The position numbers and the translations under genes were made by a program. 64,000 nt of DNA from an uncultured Methanosarcinaceae archaeon. GTDB lineage: Archaea > Halobacteriota > Methanosarcinia > Methanosarcinales > Methanosarcinaceae. The notes beneath the pieces are model-generated. The model worked only from the letters and a program-made list of their open reading frames with translations. It was not told the origin of the DNA and did no database searches. Numbering within the stretch: position 1 is the first letter of the stretch; the number at the start of each line of letters is the position of its first letter. Location of the stretch: positions 96,001 through 160,000 of the forward strand of contig CAVSHT010000004.1 in assembly GCA_963727895.1 (NCBI GenBank), read 5' to 3'. Positions 25,810-30,175 of this stretch are shown here, piece after piece.

Positions 25810-26123
25810 AATGGAACTTACTCAAAATTGGCTTTGAATATGCTCGTGCACAGCAAACTTAGAAGCTGGCTTACTATCATTGGAATCGTAATAGGAGTTG
25901 GCGCAGTAGTAGGAGGGATAGTCTCTCTGGGGGATGCTATGCAGGCACAGGTGCAAAGCAGGCTTGCAACCTTAGATTTAGCGCACATCACCATCTCACC
26001 AGGATATTCAAGAGCTCAAGCAGGAGGGTTTGGTGGATTTAGAAGAGGAACTACTACAAATGATGTTCAGTTGACAGATAAAGATATTGATGCGCTCCGT
26101 GGTATAGCAGATCTAAAATATAT
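25810..26123 (+). pseudogene. MacB/FtsX-type ABC permease, truncated by IS1
   Basis: RSWLTIIGIVIGV; homology to 32911..34149 stops at the IS1 end (26124). Confidence 0.85.
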
Positions 26124-26620
26124 GGTATTGTTACTTAAATATATCTAGTTCTTTATTTCTTTATTTCATCAATAGAAGAACCGAGTACTTTAGCATTTCA
26201 AGACTCTTCGTATAACACTTTGTCTTTCTTCTTAATCTTGCTAGAAAATGCCTCAATATGCTGTTATATCTCTCAACTGTAAATGTTTCTGCTTTTGATT
26301 GAGTATGAATCTTTTCTGGAAGAAACTCTGCATATGCTCTCCAGTGATCTGTCATCACTTCTCCAATGTCTTTTTTCTTCAATTTTTCCCAGAGTAGTTT
26401 TCCAGTTTCCGTTCCTCTGCTGCCAAAAGAGCAGTTGATGAACTTTTTCCCAACTCTATCAACAGCAATCCAGATCCAGCAATATTTTTTTTGTTACCGA
26501 CGTAAGTGTGCATCTCATCCATTTCAACAATAGATATCTCACTTTCACTTTTTAGGTTCTCTAACTCCTGACCAAATTTCTTTATCTATTTTTGGACAGA
26601 AACATGACTTACCCCTAAAA

Positions 26621-28150
26621 CGCACATGATATTCTTCGAATAACAAGCACAACTAATGAAAGTACTCTCCGTTCTTTTTTTTGACTATTAAGCCCTCATT
26701 ACCTTGGGCAGTAAGGTTGTCTCGATTTTGGTTTTTCAAAACCGTCCTAAAACTAATCAGTGAATTGCCATCGAAGGCTCAAGTGTGACTTTGATCACGG
26801 ATGCTAAGTTGGCCTTTTAGGCAATTCCACTGCCCAAATAAATTTGGTGATCTAATTTGATTGAAGTCATAAACAAAGCTTGTGGTTTAGACATTCACAA
26901 ACTCTTTTTCATTGCTACAATTCTCAGCAGATCTGGTGAAAAACAACAGCAACGTTTCAACAGAGACGATGAAGGAATTTTAGCCCCTAAAAATTGGGTA
27001 ATATCAGAAAAATGTGATGTTGTTGCATGTGAATCAACCAGCTACTTTTGGGTTCCGATTCATGATTCATTGGTAAAGCATCTAACTGTGATAGTTGGAA
27101 ATGCGCGAGATATGAAGGTATTTACCCATAAAAAACAGATAAAATTGACTCAGAAGTCATTGCACAACTTGCACTTAATAATATGATTCAGCCATCAAGA
27201 GTTTTTCCAAAGGATCATATAGATTTTAGATCATATGTTCGACTTCGGTTAACACTTGTACAAAAAAGAACAGATTTAAAAAATAAAGCTCACTCAATTC
27301 TTGCATCTGAAATTCAATTCTTGCATCTGAAATGCTACACCTGAATAATGTGCTGACAGACGTTTTTGGCAAGAATGGCAGAATGATCTTATTAGGAATC
27401 TCTTCAGGTAAGAGTGTTGATCAGATTATTGCAAGCCTCTCTCCAAATGTTCGGAAAAAAGCTGCTCAGATAAGAGAAATTCTTGATCGAGAAATTTCTC
27501 AAAGTGCTGCATTCAGACTTCAGATCTGTCTGAAACTCATAAAAAGTCTTGATGATGAACTCGAAGCTTTAGAAACAGAAATTTTCAATTATGCTTCTCG
27601 AAATCATAAGCGAGAAATGGAGATTTTAATGTCAGTTCCAGGTATAGGGGAACTTGGTGCGGCAATTTTACTTGCTGAAATAGGCAACTTTAAGGATTTT
27701 TCTTCTGGAAATAAGCTTGCTTCTTGGCTTGGTCTAGTTCCTAATGTGTATCAATCTGCAGATAAATACTATAACGGCAGAATCACAAAGAGGGGATCAA
27801 AAGTAGCAAGGTGGATTCTGACACAGATTGCTCAAGCAGCAGCAAGAAAGAAGAATAGCAGGTTAAAAGAGTTTTTTAACAGAAAAAAGAAGTCGATTGG
27901 ACATGCAAAAACAATTATTGCCTTAGCAAGGAAAATTGCAACGATACTATGGCATCTTATTACAAACGATGAGATGGACGAAGATGAAACCGGATATCAA
28001 AAGGGAGAAATCCAAAAGAGAAAGATTATTGAAACTGAGCTTTTTTCGGTTGATGAACGGATTAAAATAATTAGTGGAATATTTGCGATTATGGGGAAAA
28101 AGGATCAAGAGAGCACGTGAGGATAATCTCCTCATGTACTTTCATGCTAA
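26621..28150 (+). mobile_element. IS110-family element; recombinase broken by a frameshift (~27135) and a 20-bp tandem duplication (27294-27333)
   Basis: GLDIHK, CESTS, (K)TDKID, PGIG, GLVP..YQSA, ALARK motifs. Confidence 0.9.
26704..26837 (+). ncRNA. Candidate bridge RNA in the IS110 left non-coding end
   Basis: Nested stems; segments match the target (CGATTT, CCTAAAA) and donor (ATGCTAA) junctions. Confidence 0.6.
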
Positions 28151-28486
28151 ATCATCCTATTGAGCGAAAGCCCAATCCTTCAAGATAGAGTTGTAAAGCC
28201 TGTCTTTTTACAGAAGCGGAAAAAGCAGTTGATTTTAGCTCTACTGTATAGTTATATCCACAATCAGAGCATTTGTACCGTTGACGCCCGCCAACTATAC
28301 CATTCTTTTTGTGATTAGAACTATTACATTTTGGGCAGTTCATGAAGAAATAGAGGTTCTCATAATAAATAACTATAGTTAATTATCAAAGCCTTATTTT
28401 GCATATTTGTTATATTTCTATGAGAAGTATGTTTATCTATAAATAAATTAATATTAACTTGTTAACCAGTAGAAGAGGCGCATGAG

Positions 28487-30175
28487 TTGAAGATAACAAA
28501 GATAACTGCTTATGTGATTGTATTTTTGTTAATAGTATTAGCAGCACTAATTTGTATTAGAGGATTCGGCTTTTACTCTAATAGAAACAACTCAGAAATA
28601 AATAATAATTGCAATCAAGACACTCTTACTTTACTTTCACAGAATTATTCTGAAGTAAGTAACATTCCAAGCAATATTTTTATTGACAAAATTGAAAATG
28701 CTACTAATCCTAACAACTCACATTCGATGCTCTCTGGAAACGAGAAATCGGAAATCTTTTTAGATAATGTTTCAAAAGAGTTAGTATACGCAACTACAAG
28801 AAGTTCTAATGACTCGTCAACTCCAATAGCTAACCACGCAGCTGAAAGACTCAAGAATAAGTCTCTTTATATATGTAATTTTACTCCGATGTTTAAATGC
28901 ACATATGATATCTCTATGGGTATAAGCACAGACAATTCACTAAGTTATATAGAACTTTATAGTCCAGGGTCAAAGCTGGTAATCCGTGAAGTAAATAGCA
29001 ACACTGTATTGAAAAGTTATTTCCAAAATGTTTCAGGGAGTATGAAGTCTAAAACTATAACTATCGGTAATGCTGAGAAATCAAATTTAAAAATTATTTT
29101 TGATGGAGTGAACAAGACAAATACTATCGTCACAGAAAATGGCAACTATATAATTACACCATTTTATAAAATTGATAGACAAAAGTTGCCATATGTCGAT
29201 TTTTCAAATGGATATATCAAGTTTATATCTTTTATCGATGGAAATGGAAAATATCTTGATGTTAATTTATTCAGCATAAGCCAGAAAGCAAACCGTAAAT
29301 TAATAACTCCAATTGGAGATAGCAAAATGATTGCATATGGGCTTGACGGTCCTTATCCGAGAAATCTGACTGGACAGGGAATTAATTATCTTAATAGTAA
29401 AGGTGATAGTGGCACAATCTGGTTTGATGTGGGAAATATTGCTAAATGCAATCAAACAGATCTTGAATATTTACGGAATCTAGTTACTAATGATTCATGG
29501 GGAGTAGGTATACATTTCTCTAAAGGGCTAGGTACTCTTCCTCCTGATGAAGTTAATAAGACAATAGATACGGAATATGAATACGTTTATGAAAAAATAG
29601 GGAAAAAACCAACAAGTTGGTGCTCCTTGAGAAATAACGATAGTATAAGCCAGGCAATTTATGCATATGATAAATACGGAATGTACTGGAGAAATGGAGA
29701 TTCAGGAGTCGAGGCAGAAGAAATTATTGGGAATTTAGATGATGACACATGGCCTTGGTGGGAACTGGCATCTCATGCAGGAATGACTCATCCAGTTTTT
29801 ACACATCAAACAGACAAAGAGCCAGCTATAAAATATTCAATAAGTATATCGAAATTAAAGACCTGGGTAGATAATTATTATTCAAATAATATATCTATAG
29901 TACCATTTTATGAATACAGTCTAATAAATCGCAATACACATGATGCATATTTTGATAATATAAGATCTAACGAAACTTTTACCAAATTTGATGCACATAC
30001 AAATGGTTTCAGGTCTCTAATAAATGTGGCTATAAGTGCTGGAAATAATACAAAAGTTTATGACGATACAGTAGATAAATATTTAAATTTCAAGGTGGAA
30101 GCGGATAAATCAATTACTTTTTGGGTTGAAAACAATCATACTTATGATGTATACTGTTCTTTTACCTCAAAATAA
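28487..30175 (+). CDS. Membrane-anchored/secreted protein with a polysaccharide-deacetylase-like C-terminal domain
   Basis: N-terminal TM; YGLDGP, WGVGIHFS, PVFTH resemble NodB/CE4 motifs. Confidence 0.55.
   Translation: MKITKITAYVIVFLLIVLAALICIRGFGFYSNRNNSEINNNCNQDTLTLLSQNYSEVSNIPSNIFIDKIENATNPNNSHSMLSGNEKSEIFLDNVSKELVYATTRSSNDSSTPIANHAAERLKNKSLYICNFTPMFKCTYDISMGISTDNSLSYIELYSPGSKLVIREVNSNTVLKSYFQNVSGSMKSKTITIGNAEKSNLKIIFDGVNKTNTIVTENGNYIITPFYKIDRQKLPYVDFSNGYIKFISFIDGNGKYLDVNLFSISQKANRKLITPIGDSKMIAYGLDGPYPRNLTGQGINYLNSKGDSGTIWFDVGNIAKCNQTDLEYLRNLVTNDSWGVGIHFSKGLGTLPPDEVNKTIDTEYEYVYEKIGKKPTSWCSLRNNDSISQAIYAYDKYGMYWRNGDSGVEAEEIIGNLDDDTWPWWELASHAGMTHPVFTHQTDKEPAIKYSISISKLKTWVDNYYSNNISIVPFYEYSLINRNTHDAYFDNIRSNETFTKFDAHTNGFRSLINVAISAGNNTKVYDDTVDKYLNFKVEADKSITFWVENNHTYDVYCSFTSK

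Follow-up and report, generated by a model that had tools for sequence, protein, structure and literature searches.

A decayed IS110-family element of Methanosarcinaceae with a putative bridge RNA whose target guides fit an IS1-family transposase gene

How does a mobile element come to lie inside the transposase gene of another one, and what could have directed it there? The question is raised by a 64,000-nt stretch of DNA from an uncultured Methanosarcinaceae archaeon (assembly GCA_963727895.1, contig CAVSHT010000004.1, positions 96,001 to 160,000; hereafter the window, in the coordinates of which all features are given), where an IS1-family copy on the minus strand is interrupted by a 1.5-kb IS110-family insert. 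The body of the insert, ACGCAC...CATGCT (26620..28148, plus strand, 1529 bp), separates the distal part of the IS1 copy (26150..26617, minus strand), in which the left target half (LT) ...CCCCTA ends at 26617, from the proximal part (28151..28345, minus strand), with the right target half (RT) ATCATCCT and an InsA-like zinc-ribbon open reading frame (ORF, 28152-28343). A profile search of the window ORFs matched PF03400 (DDE_Tnp_IS1) to the minus-strand ORF 26161-26382; the PF03811 and PF12760 matches of the zinc-ribbon ORF were weak. We consider it highly probable that the insert is a decayed, non-autonomous Methanosarcina copy of an IS110-type family, the members of which move by bridge-RNA-guided recombination. 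The material behind this view comprised the genome of the window (G000; 3.67 Mb, 19 contigs, 36.6% G+C), which holds 23 near-full copies of the element with 93-99% identity, plus diverged fragments, and 80 further loci taken from the genus; 114 elements were parsed in total.

The boundaries of the element were derived from its relatives and from empty sites. The left junction in the window reads CCCCTAAAACGCAC from 26612 and the right one CATGCTAAATCATCCT, ending at 28158, and a single scheme accommodates the junctions, whether of occupied sites or of relatives, as well as the empty sites: LT-AA-[AC(G/A)NA(C/T)ATG ... CATGC(T/C)]-AA-RT. The dinucleotide AA is the core in this scheme, present at both junctions of insertions (26618..26619 and 28149..28150, plus strand, in the window) and once in the empty sites. 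Among the unique junctions of the genus it was found at 86 of 92 on the left and 61 of 63 on the right, the insertion sequence (IS) itself beginning with AC at 80 of the 92 left ones. Such a short shared core, accompanied neither by long terminal inverted repeats nor by a staggered-cut target duplication, is what distinguishes the IS110 family. A sequence-only reading of the window had already proposed the AA core, and both this and the junction strings that it quoted were borne out. Its start of the IS at CGCAC was not, as the first base is A26620 (ACGCAC); with this correction the non-coding left end, which carries the bridge RNA (26620..26856, plus strand), measures 237 nt and not 236 nt, while the right end extends 28 nt past the recombinase stop codon. 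A start at CGCAC predicts empty sites with six A, or with five A followed by CTCT, and none of the 213 empty sites is of this kind. The claim that excision restores the IS1 frame fails for the same reason, because it is supported by that split only: the window copy minus one AA gives CCCCTAAAATCATCC, which has four A, one base fewer than the in-frame 5-A form of IS1, and is out of frame. An AAA core was rejected as well, on the evidence of empty IS1 sites and of relatives with fewer A's at their junctions, such as L078 (TTCT-AA-AC... and CATGCT-AA-TGTACC).

According to folding and covariation, the core of the putative bridge RNA occupies 26704..26837 on the plus strand, one outer stem (TTGGGCAGT, 26704-26712, with ACTGCCCAA, 26829-26837) enclosing two arms. 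Arm 1, the predicted target-binding loop (26715..26758, plus strand), has the basal stem GGTTG (26715-26719) / TAATC (26754-26758) and, in the letters of the window, the hairpin GGTTTTTCAAAACC (26730-26743). Arm 2, the predicted donor-binding loop (26762..26827, plus strand), is built of the stems GAATTGCC (26762-26769) / GGCAATTC (26820-26827) and 26773-26778 / 26812-26817, with an inner hairpin GTGA (26785-26788) / TCAC (26795-26798). An outer stem around two arms had been drawn by the sequence-only reading; its strings lie where it placed them, the structure is kept across relatives, and the fold prediction that it called for recovered the outer stem and arm 2 on the plus strand at -44.8 kcal/mol (z -2.54), a value equalled by none of 200 shuffles. 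The structure was evaluated over 37 named pairs in 60 distinct sequences from the genus. Pairing was retained in 92.7% of the cells, compared with 28.6-48.9% when the partners were slid by 1-3 columns, and 56 cells were doubly changed, compared with 21.8 +/- 4.2 in shuffles (0/500 reach 56), with changes on both sides seen at 10 of the 37 pairs. At the third G of the outer stem a GC-to-AU double change is present in 12/60 sequences; helices 2 and 3 are 95.7% and 98.3% paired, with UA/UG/CG and UA/CG exchanges, and helices 4-6, in arm 2, are 91-95% paired. G-U pairs are frequent (31/69, GU in 54; 89/137, GU in 51; 28/72, GU in 30; 45/56, UG in 18), and we place the RNA on the recombinase strand because on the opposite one these pairs would be A-C.

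The 3' strand of the outer stem can also pair downstream (CCAAAT..ATTTGG, within 26833-26848), and L036 has a compensatory change in this alternative pairing (CCAAGT..ACTTGG). Another clade of the genus has a longer outer helix instead, CTCCATCAT being paired with ATGATGGAG. These pairings may be alternative closing helices or a hairpin at the 3' end.

The main argument for guidance comes from the parsed copies of the genus, and it begins with arm 1, the strands of which would read the two halves of the target. Its 5' strand consists of the reverse complement of RT followed by UU, and its 3' strand of 4-6 nt of LT in the sense of the left flank, followed by AA and then AC. In the window the 5' target guide is CGATTTT (26723..26729, plus strand), complementary to the top strand over the core and the right flank (AA-AATCG), and the 3' target guide is CCTA + AA (core) + AC (26746..26753, plus strand), which agrees in sense with the left flank, the core and the two bases that open the IS. 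Across 23 guide groups the 3' guide matched its own left flanks at 2.75 of 4 positions, against 1.42 +/- 0.18 after permutation (0/20,000), or at 3.19 against 1.96 in a 6-nt version. For the 5' guide and the right flanks the figures over 19 groups were 3.69/7 and 2.81 +/- 0.21 (0/20,000), and a register-free comparison of the right flank gave 2.68/5 and 1.85 (0/20,000). The pairs themselves are instructive. The 3' guide CCUA of the window goes with the left flank CCTA; CAGA (G072, L036, L109, L163) with AGA or CAGA; GAUA (in G048, with 10 loci pulled and 9 parsed, in G041, with four copies, and in G046 and G061) with (G/A)ATA; CAAA (G004, G012) with CAAA or TAAA; UUCC (L073, L159) with TTCC; ACUG (L110) with ACTG; and UGUC (L165) with TGTC. 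On the other side, the 5' guide of the window predicts AAAATCG, which is the right flank in the 5-A form of IS1; that of G048 predicts AAAATAAGT, the flank being AAATAAGT; those of L073 (AAATCTAGT) and L099 (AAATAAAAG) match their right flanks at 9/9 positions; and that of L163 predicts AAAAATCGG where AAATCGG is found. Matches on both sides include L073 (9/9 on each), L159, L163 and L165. To judge from these comparisons, the matches exceed chance and the guides covary with the flanks across relatives, as the earlier reading of arm 1 had foreseen: its strings are in place, and the check that it proposed, homologous copies compared with their insertion sites, has revealed the covariation.

As to arm 2, its 3' strand contains the putative 3' donor guide ATGCT+AA followed by G26808 (26801..26808, plus strand; ATGCTAA at 26801-26807), in the sense of the right end of the IS, CATGCT+AA. 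The G at 26808 is private to the window copy, the other 22 copies having A. In 64 of the 71 parsed elements the strand (AUGCU, AUGCC or AUGUU) is identical to the last five bases of the IS, which agrees with the earlier claim that ATGCTAA repeats the donor end plus core, and the seven misses include evident chimeras, e.g., C4_54059, with the left end of another subfamily; in L159 and L165 AUGCA accompanies CATGCA. The second donor guide had been described as a partial match, and it is one: the candidate 5' donor guide TGTGAC+TTT (26784..26792, plus strand; TGTGACTT at 26784-26791) agrees with the reverse-complemented IS start at no more than ATGTG and the T run, without tracking the variation of that start, and may belong to the inner hairpin. 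Covariation of a guide with a flank or an end of the element holds for three of the four guides.

The element C4:52532-54059 of the window's genome (L054, the C4_54059 mentioned above) is chimeric. Its left end and guides are those of the subfamily at C4:93227-94172 (L024), and its left flank fits the L024-type guide (TACTAAAAC); the body and the IS1 right flank are of the window type.

What is the target in this genome? The IS1-family element is present here in ~226 copies of the same sequence as the interrupted one, 213 of them empty sites and 13 with an IS110 left junction, and falls into several sequence variants, frameshifted 4-A forms among them. The empty site reads CCCCTAAAACTCTTCC in 125 cases, CCCCTAAAAATCGTCC in 45 and CCCCTAAAAATCTTCC in 10, the remainder of the 213 being rarer forms that include the 4-A ones. 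The 11-mer fitting both strands of arm 1 (CCTAAAAATCG) occurs at 48 genomic sites, 46 of which lie within IS1, and this upholds the notion of an element aimed at another IS. Occupied sites are mostly of the ATC variants (12/15, three being of the commoner ACTC type), empty ones less often (61/197, with 136 of the ACTC type; Fisher p = 0.00025); with the copies collapsed to five haplotypes the preference has p = 0.038.

The protein encoded by the insert belongs to the recombinases of this family, although its two domains lie in three broken pieces. The N-terminal (DEDD/RuvC-like) fragment (26857..27186, plus strand) matches PF01548 with 21.6 bits, under the cutoff of 29 as befits a truncated fragment, and the C-terminal ORF of 262 aa (27332..28120, plus strand), with a coiled coil and the Tnp domain, matches PF02371 with 95 bits. 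An intact relative of 414 aa, L033, gives 80.2 bits for PF01548, 94.7 bits for PF02371 and 282.8 bits (cutoff 140) for the NCBIfam model NF033542, "IS110 family RNA-guided transposase". In phmmer alignments a relative's recombinase matches chains of IS621 in PDB (e.g., 8wt6_A, E 1.8e-11, 47 bits), the motifs GLDIHK/GIDTAK, CEST/IEAT, KTDKID/KTDTVD and YQS/YES, with the putative catalytic D, E, D..D and YxS positions, being aligned. The assignment to IS110 recombinases made from the window pieces is confirmed by these profiles, and the suggestion that the recombinase is RNA-guided is favored by NF033542 together with the covariation and the conserved structure, its function being predicted from the sequences.

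That the recombinase of this copy is broken, as had been stated before, follows from a short A run (27130-27135) and a 20-bp duplication; with the private A-to-G change at 26808 these make up its three defects. The A run is one base short, as it is in 5/22 copies aligned there, and the N-terminal fragment ends early; the frameshift removes the KTD motif, in place of which several other copies have KTY. The duplication is a 20-bp unit, TCAATTCTTGCATCTGAAAT, repeated in tandem (27294..27333, plus strand); it splits the gene in 19/23 copies. Six copies have a stop at codon 3, and the gene is damaged in all 23 copies of this genome, while other genomes of the genus contain relatives with open frames of 414-416 aa; L104, like L033, has an intact one of 414 aa, and G004, G041 and G048 hold several intact copies. 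A split but working recombinase was considered and is not supported, as no copy pairs an intact KTD-bearing N-terminal fragment with the full 262-aa C-terminal one. The duplication falls exactly between the RuvC-like domain and the remainder, with an ATG at the joint, and in the copy C5:290067-291654 four 20-bp units return that stretch to frame. Some copies of this genome, e.g., C4:393056-393841, have one TAG in frame, 24 codons short of where the recombinase gene ends. The genus can read TAG as pyrrolysine, and this codon need not terminate the protein.

From these data the following course of events can be proposed. The left end would encode an RNA of ~135-160 nt on the recombinase strand, with one outer stem closing two arms. 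Arm 1 would read the target, the last two bases of its 3' strand matching the first two bases of the IS in the manner of the handshake guide of IS621, and arm 2 would read the donor, i.e., the joined ends CATGCT-AA-ACGCAC; recombination at the AA core should then yield LT-AA-IS-AA-RT. The lineage of the window would be programmed for CCTA-AA-(A)ATCG, a target that in this genome is almost confined to the helix-turn-helix coding part of the IS1-family transposase gene, and because the target occurs nearly only in IS1 the element would insert into IS1 and disrupt it. We infer the production of the RNA and its binding by the recombinase, and likewise the strand-exchange chemistry, the handshake role of AC and the origin of the recombinase that moved the copies of this genome. 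As for transcription, the element of a relative, L104, is present on contigs in three RNA-seq assemblies, the whole element being at 2-5x the depth of its flanks; this depth is uninformative because it fits copy number. In a raw RNA run under a relative's species label, 19/19 reads fell in the left end and its flanks and none in 21 bins of the recombinase ORF; provided that the library was stranded in the usual way, they match the strand expected of a sense RNA, which weakly supports the proposed RNA.

How does this arrangement relate to the known ones? In IS621 each loop consists of a stem, the left guide, a stem-loop and the right guide, and the donor is the RE-LE junction LD-core-RD (PMC11208160, PMC11208158). 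In IS1111-type seekRNAs the complement of the top strand stands 5' of the match to the bottom strand, and ISEc21, of the IS110 type, is reversed; apart from a few exceptions, the non-coding region follows the gene in IS1111 types and precedes it in IS110 types (PMC11187229). In the present family the 5' strands complement the top strand on the right, and the 3' strands agree in sense with the left half. This order is opposite to that of IS621 and ISEc21 and the same as in IS1111-type seekRNAs, although the RNA precedes the recombinase gene. Once the reverse complements of target and donor are considered, the system is IS621-like throughout, including AC after the core, which matches the other DNA as a handshake guide does.

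The resemblance to IS621 extends to a DEDD/RuvC plus Tnp recombinase, an RNA that the left end encodes ahead of the gene, a pair of loops, each composed of stem, guide, stem-loop and guide, a dinucleotide core within the guides, two post-core bases on one guide that match the other DNA, and a donor made of the joined right and left ends. The differences are the guide order within the loops, reversed here relative to the orientation of the element, the core (CT in IS621, AA here), and the overall shape, IS621 having a 5' stem-loop and two separately closed loops where a single outer stem surrounds both here; in addition, the protein is only remotely similar (47 bits), and the host is an archaeon. 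With the seekRNAs of ISEc11, ISKpn4 and ISPa11 (PMC11187229) the family shares the top-strand complement 5' of the bottom-strand complement and perhaps a three-base extension (GCT/GCC) between a subterminal inverted repeat and the right end; in those elements, however, the non-coding region and the RNA are downstream of the transposase gene. Their subterminal repeats measure 11-13 bp near both ends in that paper (7-17 bp for IS1111 types in general, the left extension being 6-7 bp long and the right one 3 bp), whereas here, by eye, TTTCATG and CATGA(T/A)A (TTTCATG...CATGA) flank CT-AA-ACGCA, which could be read as a 3-bp right and a 6-bp left extension, although only 5-7 bp are repeated; a 10-bp repeat (ATGAAAGTAC) is found ~45 nt in from the left end. 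In tblastn the matches to named IS1111-type elements (IS1618, IS5708, ISKpn2, ISShdy1) span only residues ~196-369, and the comparison of subgroups is based on RNA position and guide order. Partridge and Hall reportedly described in 2003 that IS4321/IS5075, of the IS1111 family, target the terminal repeats of Tn21-family transposons. They resemble the present element as IS110/IS1111-family members with a specific target inside another mobile element, and differ from it in being bacterial and in targeting a terminal inverted repeat rather than the coding region of an IS1 transposase.

Archaeal members of the family are already on record. ISMac14, ISMba7, ISMba20 and ISMma5 are IS110-family ISfinder entries from Euryarchaeota (PMC11208160 Supplementary Table 1; PMC11187229 source data). 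By their names they come from Methanosarcina, and the domain alignment of the representative of their cluster resembles the recombinase described here, the printed representative sequence being different from it. We found no paper with ISMac14, ISMma5, ISMba7 or ISMba20 in its main text, and none holding both "bridge RNA" and "Methanosarcina". One preprint counts 662 archaeal IS110 recombinases (10.1101/2024.06.21.599552), and another, of 2026, gives 86 bridge RNA structures as models, many of which differ from IS621 (10.64898/2026.10.21.760802); the layout with an upstream RNA and IS1111 order may already be among those in such catalogues.

Several observations weigh against a bridge-RNA-guided family. 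A scan of 26000-28800 with Rfam 15 (E up to 10) produced three chance-level matches and no bridge RNA family, the best E in the region being 1.8, for an unrelated model. The RNA, its ends and its binding by the recombinase are predictions from sequence; the RNA-seq support amounts to 19 reads, the strand of which depends on the type of the library, and the contig runs cannot separate RNA from DNA. No guide for the left end of the IS was found: the 5' strand of arm 2 shows no covariation with the IS starts, which do vary, and the candidate AUGUGAC-UUU, mismatched at two positions adjoining the core, is invariant across them. As to the covariation with the flanks, the permutation counts of 0/20,000 overstate significance because related copies are not independent, and should not be taken as probabilities; moreover, the targets and guides are A/T-rich and their A runs lead to one-base register slips and to high chance matches (means 1.4/4 and 2.8/7). 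At the target, 5/15 IS1 right junctions are one A short of what the common IS1 form predicts. Three of the five, those of the window (28151-28158) and of the copies C4:393015 and C8:98181, share the right flank ATCATCC (one A fewer, and G to A); it occurs in 0/213 empty IS1 sites, although the three IS1 hosts differ from one another. The A run may have slipped, or the junction may have been crossed by gene conversion. Finally, no intact recombinase gene was found among the 23 copies of this genome, and the resident copies therefore do not explain how the recent burst was catalysed.

The shared flank bears on a quite different history, in which a single ancestral insertion spread as an IS1::IS110 composite by means of the IS1 transposase or recombination, with no targeting involved. 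About 226 IS1 copies could amplify a passenger, and rearrangement does occur: eight or nine copies are flanked by IS1 on a single side, a sign of later events of this sort. Nevertheless, the IS1 sequences around the ten two-sided copies differ at 14-40 of 479 positions on the left, where C7, a copy with an internal deletion, was left out, and at 9-22 of 212 on the right. Recent copies are much closer to one another in their IS110 bodies, which differ at 9-23 of ~1525 positions. The hosts therefore diverged before the inserts arrived, and at least ten insertions into diverged IS1 copies are, on this comparison, independent insertions at the same site. Three or four copies occupy non-IS1 sites that are nevertheless guide-compatible (e.g., CTTCTA-AA-ATAG and AACCTA-AA-ACTG), and relatives with other guides occupy other sequences, which match those guides; spread as a composite is thus extremely improbable. 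It is also very improbable that the recombinase protein itself reads the DNA, the left end being a 5' untranslated leader or regulatory RNA and the flank matches incidental. This would agree with an RNA that is deduced from sequence and folding, with one of four expected guides not being found and with the commonness of short matches in A-rich, low-complexity targets that the permutation means reflect. It does not agree with the joint change of guides and flanks over at least 19-23 guide groups, the protein remaining 80-93% identical, or with guide columns that are the most variable within an otherwise conserved RNA (column entropies of 1.08 and 1.17 bits, compared with 0.37 for paired and 0.41 for other unpaired columns); besides, RNA guidance has been demonstrated experimentally for the family, according to PMC11208160 and PMC11187229, and the NCBIfam name refers to it.

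One may further suppose that this is a standard IS621-type bridge RNA and that the reversed order is an artefact of a wrong strand or element orientation. The minus strand does fold better (z -3.88, compared with -2.54), and the IS621 order was taken from the text of the paper. But the abundant G-U pairs, including the UA-UG-CG series in the arm-1 hairpin, become A-C on that strand; a minus-strand RNA would have its top-strand-pairing guide on the left half, which matches neither frame of the IS621 rule, and the orientation of the element is fixed by the recombinase ORF. A minus-strand RNA was rejected on the G-U pattern and the guide logic, and an artefact of this kind appears very improbable. 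Recombination guided by a plus-strand bridge RNA remains the reading that we adopt.

The distribution of the family is consistent with a resident of methanogenic archaea, and the archaeal host supposed by the sequence-only reading is confirmed by close relatives in Methanosarcina and Methanolobus records. A search of 59 genomes of the genus detected the left end in 52; protein relatives with 63-93% identity come from records titled Methanosarcina, Methanosarcinaceae and Methanolobus, and the same RNA is retained in the copies from Methanolobus and other Methanosarcinaceae. Near-identical elements are also present on 1.5-3.7 kb contigs in bacterial bins (L148, L152, L165, L166, L167 and L188; Oricola, Cloacimonadales, Ignavibacteriaceae, Bacteroidales and Clostridiales), which are most likely binning errors and not transfers to bacteria. 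In L043 and L044, from another genus of the order, the recombinase is 40% identical and the left end has ~250 nt with a hairpin between strands, one of the hairpin-flanking strands repeating 9 nt of the left boundary in the same sense (CACAGAGTC); these two copies, the element boundaries of which are not fixed, suggest a shared guide layout. Next to the IS1 copy of the window, an ORF with an N-terminal membrane segment (25828-26148) stops abruptly at the edge of that copy, with the look of a gene that the IS1 insertion cut short.

What would all this mean for the family? We propose tentatively, and with somewhat less than even confidence, that the elements of Methanosarcinaceae represent a third layout of IS110 systems, with an upstream RNA, donor polarity flipped relative to that RNA, IS1111 order, one outer stem and an AA core, that the family has been naturally reprogrammed at least 20 times in a single genus, and that one lineage was retargeted to the coding sequence of an IS1 transposase as a parasite and inactivator of IS1, spreading as copies unable to make a recombinase of their own. 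The principle of RNA guidance is already known and is not changed by our results. Bacterial elements served to define bridge and seek RNAs, and here is an archaeal family in which changes of the guides can be read against the insertion sites. Its guides come in more than 20 natural variants, several Methanosarcina genomes contain intact recombinase genes, and Methanolobus has relatives. That an upstream RNA occurs together with the IS1111-type order bears on the relation between the two known layouts; it suggests that the donor junction can be inverted with respect to the RNA gene while function is retained. An archaeal bridge recombinase with a simple AA core would be a plausible starting point for programmable insertion in methanogens. 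Finally, the targeting of one IS by another indicates that a site-specific element can thrive on an expanded IS family as a safe landing pad.

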